From a virus, in the IMG/VR virus record IMGVR_UViG_3300008267_000016, positions 21,269 to 85,268 of that record: 64,000 nucleotides of DNA, one strand, 5' to 3'. Position numbers and translations under genes: made by a program. Of this stretch, positions 20,351 to 54,185 are shown one piece after another; the stretch's first letter is position 1; every line of letters begins with the position of its first letter. The notes below the pieces were generated by a model. It was not told the origin of the DNA, ran no database searches, and worked only from the letters and a program-made list of their open reading frames with translations.

Positions 20351-21586
20351 ATGCGTATTTCGCAGAAGGGGATAGATTTAATCAAAAAGTTTGAAGGTAT
20401 TCGGCTGACAGCCTATGTCTGTCCTGCCGGTGTATTGACTATCGGCTATGGGCATACTGGGCCTGATGTGCAACCAGGAATGCGCATCACCGAGGAGGAG
20501 GCCGAGCGTCTGCTGTGGGCTGATACTGAGAGTGCGCAACAGACCGTCAGTAGTTTTGTAAGCGTAAAACTTAATCAGAATGAATATGATGCGCTAGTTT
20601 CTTTTACGTTTAATGTTGGACCGACAGCGTTCGTCAACAGCACGATGCTGCGCCTGCTTAACCATGGAGCTGATCGCAAGGTCGTAGCGGGTGAATTCGG
20701 TAGGTGGGTTAAGGCCGGCAGCGATGAAGTCATCCCTGGTTTGGTACGGCGCCGAGAAGAGGAGAAAAAGTTATTCTTAGAGAAGGTGAAGCATCCTCTT
20801 TTGGCTAAGTCTCTCCTTGCGAAACGTGATACTTGGCTCAAGCGTCACCCTGTTGACTCCAGCACCTTGAAGGCCGAGGAGAAGCTTTTTGTCCCTAAAG
20901 GCAGCGCGTGGCAGTGGACTGAAATCAGGATGTATGCCGGAGAAGCTCACCAGCGAGTGCTCCTAGAGAAGCAACCAGAAGTTGAGTGGTGGTTTTTCCC
21001 GGATCACTGGAAGATCATTAATGACACAGAGACTCAGGAGACACCACCCAAGACAGACGGTGAGATCAAACTAGTTGTTCCTTACTTCTCCCAACGGGAT
21101 AACAAAAAAGATCCTATGCGCACCTGCTTTTCCAGCAGTTGTGCAATGCTCCTGGCGGCTCTCGATCCTGATGCTATTGATACTGACGATGAATACATCA
21201 GTGAAGTATATAAGTACGGTGATACCACATCGGCTTCAGCTCAACTGGACACTCTGAAGCACTTTGGTGTCGACGCTAAGTTTGTTCAAAACGCAAGCTG
21301 GGATACCATCGAGCAGCAGCTCAAGCGAGGCATCCCTGTCCCAATGGGCATCCTCCACAAAGGTCCAGTTTCCAATCCTGTTGGAGGCGGCCACTGGATC
21401 TGCTGTGTGGGCGTCACCGCAGACCGCCAGAAACTTTGGGTGCATGATCCTTTCGGCGATCTTGATCTGATTGGTGGGTCTTACGTTTCTACTGATGGGA
21501 AATACCGCTTGTATTCCAAGAAAAACTTAGGCCCTCGTTTCCTTGTTGAAGGACCTAAGAGTGGCTGGGTAATCCTGGCTAGCTGA
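20351..21586 (+). CDS. Endolysin: GH24 lysozyme plus C39-like peptidase domain
   Basis: LIKKFEG.RLTAYVCPAGVLTIGYGHT, GLVRRREEE; VPYFSQRDN..RTCFSSSCAM, GGGHW, VHDPFG. Confidence 0.92.
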   Translation: MRISQKGIDLIKKFEGIRLTAYVCPAGVLTIGYGHTGPDVQPGMRITEEEAERLLWADTESAQQTVSSFVSVKLNQNEYDALVSFTFNVGPTAFVNSTMLRLLNHGADRKVVAGEFGRWVKAGSDEVIPGLVRRREEEKKLFLEKVKHPLLAKSLLAKRDTWLKRHPVDSSTLKAEEKLFVPKGSAWQWTEIRMYAGEAHQRVLLEKQPEVEWWFFPDHWKIINDTETQETPPKTDGEIKLVVPYFSQRDNKKDPMRTCFSSSCAMLLAALDPDAIDTDDEYISEVYKYGDTTSASAQLDTLKHFGVDAKFVQNASWDTIEQQLKRGIPVPMGILHKGPVSNPVGGGHWICCVGVTADRQKLWVHDPFGDLDLIGGSYVSTDGKYRLYSKKNLGPRFLVEGPKSGWVILAS

Positions 21587-46559: not shown

Positions 46560-46924
46560 TAGTGCATTGGAACGCGGCTAACAGTGTAATCCTGCTTGTC
46601 CACCATGGGGATGACTTCGTTCTGTGTAGTCAGAAACCACTCGAAATTAGTTTGTGACACACAAGCACCGCAGAACTCACGCAAGATAACGTGCAGGCGA
46701 GACTTAGTTGTGTTTGTTCGCCACCCACAGTTGTTGACTGTTACATCGTCGGGAGTCACCGTGGCGATGAGGTTGTTGTGCAGGTAGACATTGCAGCGGT
46801 CGATGATGCGATCTTCAGAATCCACAGGATGTGGGAAGTGAATACACTCAACGCGAGTGTTATCCAAGCTGAAGTTCTTGCGCTCGATGATTGCGCTGAG
46901 CATCTTCTTTTCGATGGTTCTCAT
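46559..46924 (-). CDS. Conserved early phage protein
   Basis: MR.IEK.M..AI, VYLH.N.IA, GWRT.TTKSRL motif. Confidence 0.75.
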   Translation of the reverse strand: MRTIEKKMLSAIIERKNFSLDNTRVECIHFPHPVDSEDRIIDRCNVYLHNNLIATVTPDDVTVNNCGWRTNTTKSRLHVILREFCGACVSQTNFEWFLTTQNEVIPMVDKQDYTVSRVPMH

Positions 46925-47292
46925 GATTCAGTGTTGTAATGGTTGACTACAGCTTCGAACGAATCAGGCGAAGCGATTGGTTTGAACCGACGAACTTGGT
47001 TTAGCCACTGATCTTTGTGTACCCAGGATTTTGCATCAGGCTCTGAGCCGGGTAGTTCATCTTTGAACGTGAGATCCCACGCTTTAGCTAGTTTGATTGC
47101 TTCGTTCATGGGACCGTTATACCTGCCGGCCGTCATTCCTGACTCAATGTGAGTGATTGTCCAGGTGCATTTCTCTTTGCTGAGTTTGCCACCGAAACCG
47201 ACAACTGGGCGGTGGACAGCCAAGGCTTCTCCCATCCACTTAGTAGGGATCTTGAAAGCGCCTTCGTTCGTGTTAATCGTCACCATCTTCAT
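46921..47292 (-). CDS. Hypothetical early protein
   Basis: LAVHRP..WTITHI.SG. Confidence 0.6.
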   Translation of the reverse strand: MKMVTINTNEGAFKIPTKWMGEALAVHRPVVGFGGKLSKEKCTWTITHIESGMTAGRYNGPMNEAIKLAKAWDLTFKDELPGSEPDAKSWVHKDQWLNQVRRFKPIASPDSFEAVVNHYNTES

Positions 47293-47476
47293 GGTCTGCA
47301 ATGGATTGTTTAAGCTGGTCGATTGCCTGCATCAGGCGATGGGCACGCGCTGAAGTTATGCAGTCTTCGAGTGAAGATTCCAATTCATTCAGTGCATGGC
47401 GTGCATCTTCAATAGTTAGGAAAGTGTCGACGGCGTACGGTGCGCCATACTCATCATCAACGACAATTTGAATCAT
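47273..47476 (-). CDS. Hypothetical early protein
   Basis: Coupled ORF MIQIVVDDEYG... Confidence 0.55.
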   Translation of the reverse strand: MIQIVVDDEYGAPYAVDTFLTIEDARHALNELESSLEDCITSARAHRLMQAIDQLKQSIADHEDGDD

Positions 47477-48967: not shown

Positions 48968-49119
48968 GCTTTACAGCAACGTGAACTGATGTAATAGTCG
49001 GCTGAGTAATCACAGATTTGATACTCATGCAGCGTGGCTTTAGCCTCTTTGTGAGACTCGAACTCGTCAACAGTTTCTAGGTAGTTGTGGTTGATTGAAC
49101 GGCGTTGGATGTAGTACAT
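48952..49119 (-). CDS. Small early protein (MYYIQRR...LETVDEFE..KEA...EY...YYISSRCCKAW)
   Basis: Read manually; recognisable phage motif. Confidence 0.65.
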   Translation of the reverse strand: MYYIQRRSINHNYLETVDEFESHKEAKATLHEYQICDYSADYYISSRCCKAWRES

Positions 49120-49121
49120 AG

Positions 49122-49403
49122 TCAGGCGAAGGTAAGTTCTTCGTAGGGACGGAAGTAGCGATCCTGTAGATACTCAATGTCTTCGTGAGTTAGTGACTTC
49201 GATGCACTGTGAAACACATTCACACAACGCTTGCAATGTAGAAACGTGTCGCTGTATTCTTGCGGCCACTGTTCGTTGTTAGCTTGAACGTGAACCTCTG
49301 TGGTGTTAGCTAAGCGAGCAACGTGGACATTAACGCACCTACCTGACGGTAGTTGTACGTATTCTGTGCAGCCACGATGAAGATTAAAGACGGAAAGTTT
49401 CAT
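49122..49403 (-). CDS. Hypothetical early protein
   Basis: Preceded by repeat copy 3. Confidence 0.6.
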   Translation of the reverse strand: MKLSVFNLHRGCTEYVQLPSGRCVNVHVARLANTTEVHVQANNEQWPQEYSDTFLHCKRCVNVFHSASKSLTHEDIEYLQDRYFRPYEELTFA

Positions 49404-49445
49404 GGTGATGTTGTTGGTATTGTGTGAGTTGGCCCGCGTTAGCGG
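49404..49445 (-). repeat. Intergenic repeat, copy 3
   Basis: CCGC-TAAC-GCGG GCCAACTCACACAAT. Confidence 0.8.
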
Positions 49446-49663
49446 TTAGGTTCTACTTCGCCGAACATTTGATCAAACAGAGAAGGCTCGGATTCATACT
49501 TAATCTGCTCACGAACGTTGCGCAGTTCGGATAACAAAGCATCATGCTTGAGCTTCATCTTGTGTAGTTCATTCCAGCTAGCTAGAACATCACGCTGGAG
49601 GGTGAATTGCTTGTTGATGAGATCGTCCATGATGATGTAAGTGTCGTCGATGTTGTTAGTCAT
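49439..49663 (-). CDS. Hypothetical early protein
   Basis: ORF ending LFDQMFG. Confidence 0.6.
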   Translation of the reverse strand: MTNNIDDTYIIMDDLINKQFTLQRDVLASWNELHKMKLKHDALLSELRNVREQIKYESEPSLFDQMFGEVEPNR

Positions 49664-49974
49664 GACCAGAAGTTACCTAAACGAAACTCAGAAACGAAGC
49701 TGTGGGCGATAGATTCTGCAGCCACAAGGCGCTCAGGTTTGGGAAACATAGCGTTCCACGATGTAGCCATAGAGCCGTAGCAGAGTTTGTAATCTTTAGC
49801 AGCTGGCACAAGTAAATAACGCTCGATGTAAGCAATAGCCCGGTCGAGACTAAACGTACCTTGCTTGTAGAACTTAGATAGAGTCTTGCCCACTGTGTTG
49901 TAGTGAGCAGATGAGAAGTTGACTGCGTACACTTCTAGTTCGCGTGCAGCAACTGTGTCGATTGTGTGAGCCAT
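49660..49974 (-). CDS. Conserved early phage protein
   Basis: ARELE.YA.N, G.F....A, AAK.Y...YG, F...ER. Confidence 0.7.
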   Translation of the reverse strand: MAHTIDTVAARELEVYAVNFSSAHYNTVGKTLSKFYKQGTFSLDRAIAYIERYLLVPAAKDYKLCYGSMATSWNAMFPKPERLVAAESIAHSFVSEFRLGNFWS

Positions 49975-49977
49975 TTG

Positions 49978-50139
49978 TCAGACTTGCAGGGCGAATGTTT
50001 GGAAAGCTTCTAGGAGGTTGTAAAACTCGTCTCGCTCGATAGGATCAATCTCGCCAGACTGTGCGAGTTGATTAAGCGCAGCGAGAGTGAACTCAACCTC
50101 ACGACGACTAACGAAGTTAAAGTGCGGGATCGGTTGCAT
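49978..50139 (-). CDS. Small early protein (MQPIPHFNFVSRRE...)
   Basis: Read manually; fills the gap. Confidence 0.5.
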   Translation of the reverse strand: MQPIPHFNFVSRREVEFTLAALNQLAQSGEIDPIERDEFYNLLEAFQTFALQV

Positions 50140-50141
50140 GA

Positions 50142-50540
50142 TCAATCAATGTCGCTAACAAGTTCATCACCTGAGAGGGTGAATGGGTCGCCGTTGATGT
50201 AGTCAACGCAGTTAAATGACGGGCACGCAGACCACGTTTCAGTTTGCATAAAGTGATCAAGTGCAAACTGTGTGAACATCTTAGCGCCAGAGTTTCTGTA
50301 GAACTGACCGAGACAATAGTGCATTGTCTGTGTCTCAAACTGTGGATTAACAGTTATAACCTCAGCGAACAATAGGCCAAGAGTCCTACCCTCACCAATA
50401 CGGAATGACACAGTGAACTTATAGTTATCGTCTGTGTAGAAACTAACATCCTGAGTGTAGATTCCACCGATCTCAGGCTCACCATCCCACTGCCAATAAG
50501 CACTCCATTCGAGTTTGGATTGTGTGAATGTGGTTGTCAT
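50142..50540 (-). CDS. Hypothetical early protein
   Basis: ORF. Confidence 0.6.
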   Translation of the reverse strand: MTTTFTQSKLEWSAYWQWDGEPEIGGIYTQDVSFYTDDNYKFTVSFRIGEGRTLGLLFAEVITVNPQFETQTMHYCLGQFYRNSGAKMFTQFALDHFMQTETWSACPSFNCVDYINGDPFTLSGDELVSDID

Positions 50541-50571
50541 GATCAGATTGCAATGGTGTTAGTTACAGTTA

Positions 50572-50877
50572 TCAGGAAGAATAACGGCCGACGATGACAT
50601 CGTTGCCGCACAACTTAACTAGCGTTCCTGTGAAATAGGAATCGTTAGCGATACCGTGCCAACCCTTAAACGGACCGTCAGGGTTAGTGTTAGTCAGGAA
50701 CTCGCAGAGGTTGTAATACCAACCGCGATAGCGAAAGAATGAACAATCGCGGTCGAACTCTTCATCGCTCATCCAATCAAATTGGTGGCGCAGTTTGGCA
50801 CGCTGAGACTGCGAAAGTTCGCAGGGGTTGAACAACGGGCGTGGTTGATTGTTGGTCTTAATTGTCAGTTCAGTCAT
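50572..50877 (-). CDS. Conserved early phage protein (first gene of early transcript)
   Basis: IKTNNQPR.L, FFRYRG..Y.L.EF, W.G...DSYF.G.LV..VIVG. Confidence 0.75.
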   Translation of the reverse strand: MTELTIKTNNQPRPLFNPCELSQSQRAKLRHQFDWMSDEEFDRDCSFFRYRGWYYNLCEFLTNTNPDGPFKGWHGIANDSYFTGTLVKLCGNDVIVGRYSS

Positions 50878-50879
50878 GT

Positions 50880-51750
50880 AAATACACCTGTGAAACTGTT
50901 GTAAACGGTGAGGGTAGAGGCCCTCAGTGTGCATCGTAACACACAGTGAGAGCGTCACACACACAAACGCAGAAACGAAACTTTGCACCATGATCAAATG
51001 TGATCACGAATACAAAGAAATCCACCCCTAAGTAGAGCCCGGTAGGTAATACCAGGCCCCACTAAAGAGTGATTCCGGGAAACTGACCCCAAATTAAAGT
51101 CAGTTATGGCGCACATTATGCGCACAAAAGCTATTAAATTGTGCCAAACCTGCAAAATTAAAAGCTTGCGGGCATGGCTGCAGAGACGATGACCGTAGAA
51201 AGAACTCCTATGGGCTCTGTCCAGCGTACCTGTGTGAGGGACAGATACTCTGGACACAGCATCCCTGCGGTTGAGAAAGTTAAATTGTGCCCGAGCTGGG
51301 TAGGACGGGCTATTGCGTCAGGCCACACCAGATCTATAAAGGTCGCAACGATACATGTAGCCGGGAATCTGATTCTCACTGGGCTACTGCGTTAGTCACA
51401 AGCTCGCAAGTCTGGGGACTTAACTAACGACAACCTGCCAAAGTTAAATACTTTGAGCATGGGACCAAGGGCCTCTCGGGCAAGCCACTAGCTTCAAGCC
51501 TCCCTTAACGTGACTCGCAGGCCATCGTCGGGTGAGCGGAAGATTCTAGTGGGGGCAAGGGGCTTAGGCTCGCGAGAGCTTGTGGGCACACCCCGCCTCT
51601 GACTACTAGCATCTGAGGGTATCGGTCCCCGCCCGCCTAACTGCCAGCCACTACTACCAGGTGCGATCCCTTATGGGTCTGCTCTCACCCTGGTGGGCGT
51701 CAGTCTTGACGGTCGGTTGTCCTATGTCGTCGACCCTTTCGGGCCGTTGC
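50880..51750 (-). ncRNA. Candidate large structured non-coding leader RNA
   Basis: No credible CDS; many helices, long-range pairing and a possible pseudoknot. Confidence 0.5.
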
Positions 51751-51754
51751 TGGA

Positions 51755-51783
51755 ATCCTACAGCATGGTGCGGAGCTTGTCGG
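51755..51783 (-). promoter_or_regulatory. Early promoter P2
   Basis: CCGACA-N17-TAGGAT followed by a GAAA-tetraloop hairpin. Confidence 0.55.
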
Positions 51784-51892
51784 AACGATCGAGTGACGGT
51801 TTGGCGATCGGCACAAGGGGGAACGCATAGGTTCACAGGCCTTGGCTGATCAACCGCCGGATCGCGCCGGGGCTGGCGTGGTGCTGATCGGA

Positions 51893-51966
51893 TTGTCCAG
51901 ATTCTGCCGATCGGGCTCTCGCCCTTCGACCCCTTAATGAGATCACACCACGGCGCACTAGGTCAA
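51893..51966 (-). promoter_or_regulatory. Early promoter P1 with boxB-like hairpin and boxA-like antitermination signal
   Basis: TTGACC -35 (weak -10); GGGC-GAGA-GCCC hairpin; GAATCTGGACAA. Confidence 0.55.
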
Positions 51967-52281
51967 CCCCTTGCAACCGGATTGCGGATTGGCACACTGT
52001 GTGCGCTCAGTGCGCAGGAGATGGAACCGCGCCCGCACATGCGCGCGAGGGTAGCACACGACGGGCAGATCTTAATAAGAATAAACGACAACCCCCTGAT
52101 GACCGTAGAAAGAATTAAACAGTGCTGTGTATAAACAATAAACAATAGGTGAGTTACAACAACGGCAGTGTTATACTGTACCATCATGGCATCATGCTGC
52201 CCGCAATTTCCGCTCTTTTTTTTAAATAGAGAGCTTACGCGACGACGCGGGCGAGATACCTCTGGTCTTCGGCGGGGTAAA

Positions 52282-52312
52282 TTGACCCCAAAAGGTCCAT
52301 TGTCAGTATAGT
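52282..52312 (+). promoter_or_regulatory. Promoter of tRNA(CAT)
   Basis: TTGACC ... TATAGT ending 9 nt upstream of the tRNA (spacer long, 19 nt). Confidence 0.5.
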
Positions 52313-52321
52313 GGCACGGCT

Positions 52322-52394
52322 GGGGGTCTAGCTATCTGGTGAAAGCGGTCGACTCATAATCGATTTCAGGCGAGTTCGATCCTCGCGATCCCCA
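52322..52394 (+). tRNA. tRNA with CAT anticodon (elongator Met or lysidine Ile2)
   Basis: GGGGGTC/GATCCCC acceptor, D-loop GG, GTCGA-CTCATAA-TCGAT, GCGAG-TTCGATC-CTCGC; paired 1-72, so not an initiator. Confidence 0.9.
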
Positions 52395-52476
52395 TCAAAA
52401 AAATTTTCGGCGCCACGTGGTCGTGGTTTAAACCTTTTAAAGGCACCTAAGCTGGTAGAAAGGTTCGTGCAATCGA

Positions 52477-52794
52477 ATGCTTTCCACGGAAGTGCGTCAG
52501 AAAGTTGAATTTATTTGCCAACGGATAGCAAAGGGAGAAGAAGTTCAGTTCAAAGATATGGAATGGATACAGAAATGGGCTAAATCAAACCATTCTGTAG
52601 ATGCTATGCTCCGTAAAGCACGTCGTGAAGGCATTCACGGTGCTTTTCAGGACGGAACTTTGGATGATTTCATGCAAAAAATGGATTTAGGGGATCCTGA
52701 CCCGGCTTCTCACCTCAACGGAGCCCAAGATCCCGTCACTTTGGCTGAGTGGTTCTCTGAAAAACGAAAATGGTTTAGAGGTACGGCTGAGTAG
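52477..52794 (+). CDS. Conserved cyanophage hypothetical protein
   Basis: MLST..R...EFIC.RIA.GEEV...DM.W..K; DF...MDLGDPDP..H. Confidence 0.75.
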   Translation: MLSTEVRQKVEFICQRIAKGEEVQFKDMEWIQKWAKSNHSVDAMLRKARREGIHGAFQDGTLDDFMQKMDLGDPDPASHLNGAQDPVTLAEWFSEKRKWFRGTAE

Positions 52795-52993
52795 TACCGT
52801 TTTGGTTTTTCTCGAGTTCCAATATCATATCTTTTACATAAGCCACATATTGTCTTAGATAATGCGCTGCTACTAGGTGCTTATAGCTGTTTGTTTTTAA
52901 ATAATGGTCGTTATGTCGATCTATAGCATCCAGTGATGCTTTAATCATTCCGTTCCAAGGCTCACGAACAGGCGTGTTCCACTCCCTTGCCAC
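52775..52993 (-). CDS. Conserved cyanophage hypothetical protein
   Basis: REWNTP.REPWN..I...L.AID.H. Confidence 0.7.
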   Translation of the reverse strand: MAREWNTPVREPWNGMIKASLDAIDRHNDHYLKTNSYKHLVAAHYLRQYVAYVKDMILELEKNQNGTTQPYL

Positions 52994-53077
52994 GGGAGGA
53001 ATGCAGAGTACCTGTAAATTCTACGACTGAAGTCTGGGTTTAACAGTTTAATATGTGTTTTGTATAGCAGTAATACA

Positions 53078-53104
53078 GTATCAATCGCTACCAATTCCTA
53101 CAAT
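53078..53104 (+). promoter_or_regulatory. NtcA box plus -10 element
   Basis: GTATCAATCGCTAC (GTA-N8-TAC) at 53078-53091; TACAAT at 53099-53104. Confidence 0.65.
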
Positions 53105-53125
53105 GTAGGAAGTTACAGGCTACCC

Positions 53126-53287
53126 ATGACTGTTTTAACGTATCGCGGTAAACAGTATGACACCGTTGAGCACCAGAAGGAGGTGCTTGACTGGCAAAAA
53201 ACGACCCGTGAAGCAAGCCCTCGGTGTGTTTATCGAGGCGTGGAAATAGATCCTCGTTATTCGCACGAGAACACCACGCTAAAGTGA
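53126..53287 (+). CDS. DUF4278-like small protein
   Basis: Duplicated LTYRG..Y / VYRGV motif. Confidence 0.7.
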   Translation: MTVLTYRGKQYDTVEHQKEVLDWQKTTREASPRCVYRGVEIDPRYSHENTTLK

Positions 53288-53320
53288 TTGGTGTTCCCGC
53301 TCTGCTCTTCGCATCGGGCT

Positions 53321-53394
53321 GCGTGAGTAGTTCAAGGGGTAGAACGCTGAGCAAATAGCTCAGAAATGGGCGGTTCAAATCCGCCCCTCGCGAC
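53321..53394 (+). tRNA. Atypical tRNA-like element (degenerate anticodon loop)
   Basis: GTTC/GAAC D-stem, CTGAG-CAAATAG-CTCAG, GGGCGG-TTCAAAT-CCGCCC; lacks U33; irregular acceptor stem. Confidence 0.65.
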
Positions 53395-53440
53395 TAGAAT
53401 GTCAGAGTTCCTGCCTAGGGACAACGGACAAGGGGACTCC

Positions 53441-53467
53441 GGGGGGCCTAAGGGCCCCTATTTATTT
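53441..53467 (+). terminator. Intrinsic terminator
   Basis: GGGGCC-TAAG-GGCCCC followed by TATTTATTT. Confidence 0.6.
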
Positions 53468-53516
53468 GGTTTTATAGCTGGCTTATAATTAGTTCTCAGG
53501 AGTAAAAGGTCTAAAA

Positions 53517-54185
53517 GTGGGTTTCCGTCTTCCCGTAGCTTTAAATCCTTTTAAGAGTCGGACACCTACTACTCGTCTTGGTGCACTTGGTAAAGCTTTC
53601 AACCCTTTAAATCCTGTAAACGCTGCAACGATGCTCTTAGAAGAGGCAATCGGCGGCGTCGTGGGTAAAGCTTTGGGTCCTGAAGCAAGGACTCGAGTTG
53701 AGTATTTTGGGTATGGCGGTGTTCTGCCAGGTATTGCACTGAATGTTCTGGATGCAGGAGCAGTTAGTGCTAACCAGGATCAACTGGTTAAAGCAGCGCA
53801 GGCTCAATATTTACAAGAGCAAAAACAAAAAAGGGCAGAGCAGACTCGAGTTGCTGAGTTAGCTGCCCCTCAACAGACCCGCGCTGCTGCTCCTAGTCCT
53901 GCTGCTCAACGCCCTGTAGAAGAACGGCACGCTCCTGTTACGCGAGAAGTTGCACCATCTCCTACACCACAACCAGAAAGCATGAATGAGCTTGCTCAGG
54001 TGTACGCTCGTCAGCGTCTGCTGGGTGCTGAAATGGCTAAAGGTGGTGAATTACAGCGTCGTCTCTATGAAGGTGGCGCTGCTGAAGGTATGCCTATTGA
54101 GTCGTTTATGTCTTGGGTTGAGGCAAACCCGGATCTCGCCTACCGTTTAGCTGAAAAACGCGGTCTCCTGCCGCAAGCTACCTGA
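53517..54185 (+). CDS. Putative internal virion protein
   Basis: Ala/Gln/Pro-rich; W.EANP.LAYR motif. Confidence 0.6.
   Translation: MGFRLPVALNPFKSRTPTTRLGALGKAFNPLNPVNAATMLLEEAIGGVVGKALGPEARTRVEYFGYGGVLPGIALNVLDAGAVSANQDQLVKAAQAQYLQEQKQKRAEQTRVAELAAPQQTRAAAPSPAAQRPVEERHAPVTREVAPSPTPQPESMNELAQVYARQRLLGAEMAKGGELQRRLYEGGAAEGMPIESFMSWVEANPDLAYRLAEKRGLLPQAT

Follow-up and report, generated by a model that had tools for sequence, protein, structure and literature searches.

A structured early-leader RNA with a host-type boxA in an uncultured freshwater phage that probably infects picocyanobacteria

What is encoded by the 1,443 nt of gene-free DNA that precede the early genes in an uncultured freshwater phage? 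The stretch analysed here (the window; 64,000 nt, positions 21,269 to 85,268 of IMG/VR record IMGVR_UViG_3300008267_000016) is the final 64 kb of an 85,268-bp virus record that has direct terminal repeats. The gap lies at window positions 50878–52320, between the first early gene (50572–50877, minus strand, ATG at 50877, 101 aa, no PHROG family), which is downstream of the element described below, and a transfer RNA gene, tRNA-Met (52321–52396, plus strand), which is transcribed in the opposite direction and forms the far edge. A first-pass annotation made from the letters alone had flagged 50880–51750 as a candidate structured RNA in a gap of ~0.9 kb; the gap is real but that size was too small, the flagged stretch being only the lower part of 50878–52320. 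In our view the flagged stretch is probably the conserved 3′ two-thirds of one long untranslated leader RNA, running on the minus strand from ~51930 to ~50878 and perhaps starting further upstream. This leader is a real, undescribed structured early-leader RNA with a host-type boxA. The reading that we favour, with reservations set out below, is that it is transcribed in the manner of ribosomal RNA (rRNA) through host Nus-factor antitermination, in a phage that probably infects picocyanobacteria.

The evidence for a folded RNA comes from covariation. A consensus structure of the core (51193–51787, minus strand) was built by script from nine sequences, seven of them distinct, and its pairs were scored with a pair-counting tool. 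These nine, from 12 homologue loci, served for both the pair count and the core profile; the set omits L104, which has the same BLAST figures as L103, and L108 and L109, which end inside the core. The fold comprises 179 pairs in 25 helices, with 95.5% of 1,228 cells paired, and 24 pairs are changed on both sides compared with 10.2 ± 1.9 in shuffled alignments (0 of 500 shuffles). Controls in which the partners were slid by 1–3 columns gave 2–6 pairs changed on both sides, and RNAalifold applied to four close sequences returned 192 pairs, 14 of them with compensated double changes. The pair counts, together with the lack of any matching Rfam family, bear out the earlier proposal in that the early genes are headed, on the minus strand, by a large non-coding RNA that is conserved and covaries, and the folded body is under selection for base pairing.

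Covariation is concentrated in helix 4, domain A (7 pairs), domain B (11 pairs) and helix 20. Helix 4 is a GNRA hairpin, GGCCC-GAAA-GGGUC (51733–51744), in which C-G becomes G-C in three of the seven distinct sequences and the loop reads GAAA or GAGA. It is followed by the single-stranded GACGACAUAGGACAAC (51716–51731), invariant in all 11 homologues, with GCACCTAGACAA at the matching place in the distant relative L008. Domain A (51629–51716) is a long hairpin made of helices 6–9 with the tip CCC-AUAA-GGG, where L102-type sequences carry an extra hairpin; its both-side changes fall in helix 6 (three) and helix 8 (four). Domain B (51462–51628) is multi-branched and comprises helices 10–16, with both-side changes in helices 13 (three), 14 (one), 15 (two) and 16 (five). 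Helices 17–20 (51353–51459) include a hairpin at 51436–51459, a UAGUUA/UGACUA stem and a GUAGCC/GGCUAC arm; one pair in helix 17 and two in helix 20 are changed on both sides, and the L102-type sequences are 25 nt shorter in this part.

Several pairings that had been proposed by eye reappear in this structure. The GUAGCC/GGCUAC arm is helix 20 and the pairing 51546–51552/51485–51491 is helix 15, each with two pairs changed on both sides. For the proposed CGUUAGUUA/UGACUAACG stem, the 6-bp core is retained as helix 18 but the 3-bp extension is not, since it meets an A-A mismatch in five of nine sequences. The long-range helix 51576–51584/51397–51405 competes with the local helix 14, and the U-A to C-G change of L004-type sequences is compensated locally and leaves the distal partner mismatched. 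In the same way, 51556–51565/51496–51506 competes with helix 13, which has three compensated pairs. The suggested A-B-A′-B′ pseudoknot or switch is therefore unsupported, because the L004-type substitutions are compensated in local helices 13 and 14 and not distally; covariation favours these competing local helices.

The hairpin seen at 51219–51255 with a CCCUCAC loop also stands, as helices 23/24 (51214–51260, ~19 bp), with no U-run after it. All relatives read retain it, ~300 nt ahead of the first gene (in the window, ~340 nt separate it from the ATG), and nhmmer detects it in distant relatives too. Its changes are one-sided only (U-G to C-G), so that covariation gives no proof of pairing here. 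We regard it as a candidate processing site, for example for RNase III, or a candidate protein-binding site.

Several strand-specific features indicate that the pairing is in RNA. The fold z-score of 51193–51960 is −3.17 on the minus strand versus −0.89 on the plus strand (20 shuffles each), and the tetraloops read GAAA or GAGA, that is GNRA, solely on the minus strand. The pairs contain 148 G-U versus 14 A-C cells, a count that leans toward the minus strand in that the structure was predicted on it. The excess of G-U over A-C, the minus-only loops and a strand-specific boxA motif leave unsupported the notion, raised in the first-pass annotation, of a single-stranded DNA structure.

That boxA motif stands near the 5′ end of the RNA. 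A boxB-like hairpin, GGGC-GAGA-GCCC (51913–51924, minus strand), is followed by the spacer GAUCGGCA (gaucggca) and, 8 nt on, by the boxA-like GAATCTGGACAA (51893–51904), which matches the host leader boxA GAACCTGGACAA at 11 of 12 positions and the host spacer boxA GAACCTTGACAA at 10 of 12. The closest relatives read GAACCTGGACAA itself, a 12/12 match, and L002 reads gaggcgGAACCTGGACAAtccga where the host contig L118 reads gaggcgaGAACCTGGACAAtcgaa. Among 17 gap sequences that we chose from all loci, 16 carry the motif on the RNA strand, in one to three copies, and none carries it on the other strand. We also considered a second boxA in the window (GACAUAGGACAA, with GACGACAUAGGACAAC as a degenerate boxA); the resemblance is weak, at about 8 of 13, and it is kept as a possibility only. 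Elsewhere on the minus strand, GCACCTGGACAA, identical to several host leader boxA sequences, occurs at 47157–47168 inside an early open reading frame (ORF; 46921–47301), perhaps by chance, perhaps as a second loading site.

The boxA comparison with the host rests on ribosomal RNA operon (rrn) loci of Cyanobacteria. A passage of PMC9769826 gives a primer on the boxA of the picocyanobacterial 16S–23S spacer, and its reverse complement is present in at least 120 genome stretches; among the matches listed, 75 of 80 have cyanobacterial titles, mostly Prochlorococcus and Synechococcus, with Vulcanococcus, a Leptolyngbyaceae metagenome-assembled genome (MAG) and unclassified cyanobacterial MAGs besides. 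Freshwater carriers among the matches listed include Synechococcus CS-1330, UW140 and Vulcanococcus limneticus. For other cyanobacteria, the passages of PMC8461337 that we used give boxA as GAACCTTGAAAA and D4 as CTGCATA. The context of boxA was read in seven of 80 host loci, picked for freshwater or Synechococcus titles. In six of the seven, the rrn leader comprises a GAGA-loop hairpin, next a spacer with ggca or ggcga at its end, and then GCACCTGGACAA or GAACCTGGACAA, the latter in the leaders of L118 and L189, and all seven contigs have GAACCTTGACAACTGCATAG in the rrn spacer. The head of the phage leader is built like these cyanobacterial rrn leaders, with a GAGA (GNRA) hairpin, a short spacer ending in ggca and then boxA. 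In more distant phage relatives, a leader-type boxA is followed ~150 nt later by GAACCTTGACAACAGAATAG, which matches the boxA-D4 of the host rrn spacer at 18 of 20 positions.

The likeness to the host operon extends to an enclosing stem. Directly behind boxA lies a variable element of ~140 nt, V1 (51754–51894, minus strand), whose interior differs between allele types. The end of boxA and its flank (AAUCC-GAU-CAGC, 51883–51894) pair with the invariant GCUGUAGGAUU (51754–51764), and this stem closes in nine of nine separate minimum free energy folds (eight window-type sequences and the distant L008); its 5′ strand varies (AAUCC..CAGC or CCUGCAGC) and its 3′ strand does not. As in the leader–trailer helices of rRNA, a boxA flank and a downstream strand thus form a stem around a folded element. 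A comparable arrangement is found in the distant relatives, where CACCUAG or AACCUAG of the first boxA forms a helix with CUAGGUG or CUAGGUU immediately ahead of the second, the A/C difference being matched by U/G. The element of ~150 nt between the two boxA motifs has 18 of 55 pairs changed on both sides, versus 8.3 in shuffles (0 of 500) and 3–5 in slid controls. This count used seven of 12 sequences (L089, L090, L093, L094, L100, L005 and L009); left out were L010, L095 and L101, in which the pattern found no second boxA, L008, which has another layout, and L091, a near-copy of L093.

Unlike a cyanobacterial rrn operon, the phage RNA is followed by protein genes and not by rRNA, no boxC was identified in it, and it has no similarity to rrn beyond the boxA neighbourhood. 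Profiles of the whole RNA and of the relatives' gaps gave only weak matches in that neighbourhood when run against the 80 host rrn loci (best E 0.036), the core profile matched none of them, and BLASTN of 14 gap sequences against the same loci found nothing at E ≤ 0.01.

The RNA opens like a host rRNA operon, with a GNRA-loop boxB-like hairpin, a short spacer and a near-copy of the rrn-leader boxA. In the mechanism that we propose, boxA would be bound, as the RNA emerges, by host NusB and NusE (S10), which together with NusA and NusG would turn the host RNA polymerase into its fast rRNA form, resistant to termination and pausing; the modified polymerase would then be carried across the folded leader, ~1 kb of it untranslated, and on into the early genes. 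The folded body would be an rRNA-like cargo or scaffold of the leader, possibly cut at the long hairpin. PMC10250234 describes the role of boxB, boxA and boxC in rRNA antitermination with Nus factors. A role as antiterminator was among those suggested in the first-pass annotation, and the boxB-like hairpin and boxA near-copy at the start of the same RNA may be taken as indirect support for it. Should this mechanism operate, the early programme of a widespread group of freshwater phages would be coupled to the host rRNA transcription machinery, which tracks growth rate, and the boxA motif would point to the host of uncultured phages. In either case the signal heads a 0.7–1 kb RNA with a fold under selection that is in no described family.

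In phage T7 an RNase III hairpin precedes the first early gene, and in lambda the hairpin and boxA stand in the opposite order from that seen here, where the hairpin comes before boxA as in rrn. The principle of antitermination is already known, because in T7 a boxA element for antitermination lies downstream of the early promoters A0–A3 (passages of PMC3709561) and lambda has boxA in its nut sites (PMC2800207). The present leader resembles both in that a phage early transcript, made by host polymerase, would carry a host-type boxA near its 5′ end. It differs in that neither T7 nor lambda is known to have a leader that forms a covarying fold of 0.7–1 kb, their leaders being short, in that the host phylum is different, and in that no N-like protein was identified here. 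The put RNA of HK022 likewise folds at the start of a phage early operon and may target the polymerase that transcribes it; it consists of two short stem-loops that act without host factors, whereas the leader here has a host-type boxA and a far larger fold. Our literature search did not find boxA antitermination in cyanophages, the sole match to 'cyanophage' and 'boxA' being a paper on quantitative PCR primers.

How widely the leader is distributed was examined from several starting points. The phrog_507 gene, which lies beside the tRNA, has 315 relatives in viral contigs, and the gap sequence is found only with those in L002, L004 and L038; the first early gene used as query led to L087/L102, in which the gap is 72% identical. 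Two long exact words from the window each gave the same three viral contigs and no others. A two-block pattern from the most conserved stretch matched four viral and seven metagenome contigs, and a cellular copy of the core was not found, because the pattern matched 0 genome contigs. Among cultured-phage records, a near search with the window gap was empty, a distant search gave only tRNA-Met matches in six records, and a distant search with the L090 gap gave nothing. The homologue set is a mosaic in which each segment has about four allele types. More distant relatives, with only the flanking genes in common, have 1.0–1.5 kb without ORFs in which the modules follow a common order, and in them the core is replaced by a different folded sequence.

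RNA libraries contain the region. Four metatranscriptome runs, selected using the gap itself as query, were compared with 49000–54000. Three of them (X15, X16 and X17, from two study codes) have contigs on 51052–51856: X15 an exact contig on 51530–51792, X16 a contig on 51538–51699, and X17 four contigs on 51052–51856, one of which continues upstream into L004-like 5′ sequence. The fourth, X20, from a third study, has contigs on 51958–52624, upstream of the core and across tRNA-Met, one of them covering 51958–52146. None of the contigs of the four runs lies on 49000–51051 or 52625–54000; the uncovered part proves nothing and is not used as evidence of abundance.

A cyanobacterial host is likely, to judge from sequence, because of the phage's primase and DNA polymerase neighbours and because of the picocyanobacterial form of boxA. 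The arctic-lake Synechococcus phage S-EIVl has the nearest primase (32% identical over 47% of the query sequence) and Pseudanabaena phages have the nearest DNA polymerase (28.5%). As for habitat, at least half of the sampled words occur in each of 14 DNA runs with 12 study codes, of which six carry the label fungus metagenome, six freshwater and two lake water; the source sample may be the best of the 14, and RNA runs with a small share are uninformative on habitat.

A number of points weigh against rRNA-style transcription by host Nus factors. The minus-strand early region has few terminator-like sites that would need antitermination. Cyanobacteria are not known to have Rho, which bears on what protection by boxA would be for. 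Tandem promoters had been assumed upstream, and a simple sigma-70 scan of 50500–52600 identified none. The boxA in the window itself has one mismatch to the host leader form, and the host assignment on which the comparison depends is no more than likely. S-EIVl, the one cultured distant relative examined, lacks such a leader by the boxA pattern, its single match lying antisense inside a coding sequence. Contigs from RNA libraries report presence and not strand, ends or level, and may reflect carry-over of DNA. Within the fold, the long-range closing helices 1–3 and 5 have almost no covariation, and the covariation as a whole is drawn from only about four allele types that recombine as a mosaic. 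Lastly, the core is 90% identical to that of L004 while the early genes are 86–88% identical, and in L102 the core is more diverged than its flanks. We had supposed that the core was far better conserved than its surroundings, which is wrong for the flanking genes and true only in comparison with the 5′ part of the gap. Because the core does not surpass its neighbouring genes in conservation, it is covariation, and not conservation, that carries the case for function.

The rival that survives best holds that this is a stand-alone, stable 'ornate' RNA of a new class, made behind boxA, cut at the enclosing stem and the long hairpin, and serving in trans as a scaffold, cage or sponge. We consider it possible, though unlikely. 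The related and equally tentative proposal is that the core (51193–51787) with the preceding stem-enclosed element represents a large phage RNA of a new class that has its own function, acting in trans during takeover. Its size of 600–735 nt and dense, covarying multi-domain fold would suit such an RNA, as would a conserved 3′ part with a variable 5′ part and tRNA-Met adjoining, a conserved 19-bp hairpin without a U-run that might be an RNase III site, and the short RNA-library contigs on the same stretch. However, the RNA has no terminator of its own and is in line with the early genes, cleavage at the long hairpin is purely predicted, and the distant relatives swap the core for a different fold, as would be expected more of a leader body than of a machine whose fold is fixed. 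Were the proposal true, these cyanophages would possess a small-scale imitation of an rRNA operon in which a viral effector RNA takes the place of the rRNA, possibly a sponge for ribosomal or Nus proteins; and if the folded core does have a role of its own, it would be a fourth 'ornate' phage RNA beside GOLLD and ROOL, with a testable way of being made.

Comparison with known RNA families bears on the same proposal. All 4,227 Rfam families were scanned, at gathering threshold across the whole window and at a permissive E ≤ 10 across 50700–52450 and the homologues L106 and L107. The gathering-threshold scan returned two tRNAs. The permissive scan gave no family for the region, returning for 50700–52450 the tRNA and two chance-level matches and for L106 and L107 only the tRNA and low-complexity noise from a GT-rich tract. 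The models of GOLLD (which we take to be RF01998) and ROOL were unmatched at E ≤ 10 in 50700–52450 and both homologues, in agreement with the first-pass annotation, which had recognised the stretch as none of these large phage RNAs. In the same three sequences no family model matched for OLE, RNase P RNA, transfer-messenger RNA or group I and group II introns, and ARAGORN found no transfer-messenger RNA. According to passages of bioRxiv 2024.12.08.627333, GOLLD is conserved in its 3′ region, less so in its 5′ region, and is often near tRNA islands, with one example downstream of a Met-tRNA. The present leader is likewise phage-borne and adjoins tRNA-Met, as GOLLD and ROOL are often near tRNA genes, but its tRNA is on the opposite strand and the RNA is in line with early genes behind a boxA.

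Much less probable is a decoy, in which an abundant boxA-bearing phage RNA would sequester NusB/NusE or ribosomal proteins of the host, lowering host rRNA synthesis during takeover. It would account for a hairpin–spacer–boxA module nearly identical to that of the host rrn leader at the very start of early transcription, yet there is a single good boxA per window-type RNA, and the RNA profiles match host rrn loci at the boxA neighbourhood only, with the core profile matching nowhere. Marginally less probable again is a DNA-level element, that is, a replication origin, its primer transcript or an operator cluster in a divergent intergenic region, the RNA folds being secondary. The position between divergent transcription units, an A8 tract, the invariant TGATCA pairs, CTTGTC-like repeats, the alternating purine–pyrimidine tract of the relatives and the fact that nhmmer scores the long hairpin on both strands all speak for it; compensatory changes with many G-U pairs, the strand-asymmetric z-score and the strand-specific boxA call for RNA, and cumulative GC skew has no turning point at 51–52 kb. 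For the flanks, the DNA-element and RNA readings are mutually compatible. Hidden protein-coding genes, as short ORFs or in an unusual genetic code, are very improbable in spite of gap ORFs of 60–87 codons, since stops occur in all six frames (the longest open stretch of the core is 66 codons, in keeping with the original view that the region holds no credible gene), none of the eight longest gap ORFs matched Pfam at E ≤ 0.1, substitutions between the core and five homologues have no 3-base periodicity, and the indels relative to L102 (5, 23, 11, 25, 6 and 19 nt) are not multiples of three.

We return to the structured leader and to those of its features that lie outside the core. At its head, a candidate −35 element of a leftward promoter, TTGACC (51961–51966, minus strand), is followed 18 nt on by TCTCAT (51937–51942). 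This candidate was picked by eye and was unflagged by the promoter scan; relatives have TTGACN-N18-TACCTT or GATGAT at the same place. A second arrangement considered as a promoter, CCGACA-N17-TAGGAT, was set aside: TAGGAT is part of the invariant strand to which the boxA flank pairs in nine of nine folds, and CCGACA is paired inside V1, so that TAGGAT is more likely part of a predicted RNA stem than of a promoter. Upstream of the candidate −35 is a poorly conserved 5′ part (51967–52196) that may belong to the RNA. Here the relatives L004, L038, L103, L105, L106, L108, L109, L008, L093, L095 and L101 have a (GYGYGY)n tract of ~100–200 nt at the 5′ end of the leader, in place of which the window and L002 have a unique piece holding one copy of a 17-mer. 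The G+C content is 58–66% between ~51450 and 52100 versus ~47% in the surroundings.

This 17-mer, TTCTTTCTACGGTCATC, is exact at 52098–52114 and 51188–51204 (two copies versus 0.15 expected; none of 100 shuffles reaches two). The duplicated 12-mer GGCACAATTTAA noted earlier is likewise exact, at 51134 and 51280 (two copies versus 0.29 expected; 4 of 100 shuffles reach two). In the leaders of relatives (the gaps of L089, L090, L094, L100 and L010), CTTGTCAG-like or CTTGTCC motifs occur about five to eight times, and GGCACCTTTAAC resembles the duplicate GGCACAATTTAA of the window.

The remaining leader, from the core to the start codon (50878–51213, minus strand), holds the second copy of the 17-mer and GGCACAAUUUAA (51134). 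A hairpin at 51038–51056, CCUGGUA/UACCGGG, reads CCAUGUA/UACGUGG in L004 and is thus compensated. Two TGATCA palindromes stand 4 nt apart at 50991–51006, and GATCA...GATCA is invariant in all 12 aligned relatives; the pair might serve as an operator or as methylation sites, or form an RNA hairpin. Closest to the gene is a hairpin UGAGGG/CCCUCA at 50909–50926, unflagged by the terminator scan. Just ahead of the first early gene in more distant relatives stands a terminator-like hairpin, GAGGGAUUCAUCCCUC, with UUUGUUGUU after it; the hairpin at 50909–50926 is a weaker version, and an upstream GAUUCUCUCC could pair alternatively with the GAGGGAUUCAUCCCUC region, in the manner of an attenuator.

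Beyond the gap, ARAGORN calls a tRNA-Ile with anticodon AAT at 53320–53394, which is below the gathering score of the Rfam tRNA model. In several relatives a large ORF of 521–787 aa lies directly upstream of the phrog_507 gene, where the window has none (L004 3386–4951, L038 1763–4126, L008 2719–4419, L014 2574–4724 and L017/L018 3266–4975); in L004 and L038 it sits between the phrog_507 gene and tRNA-Met.

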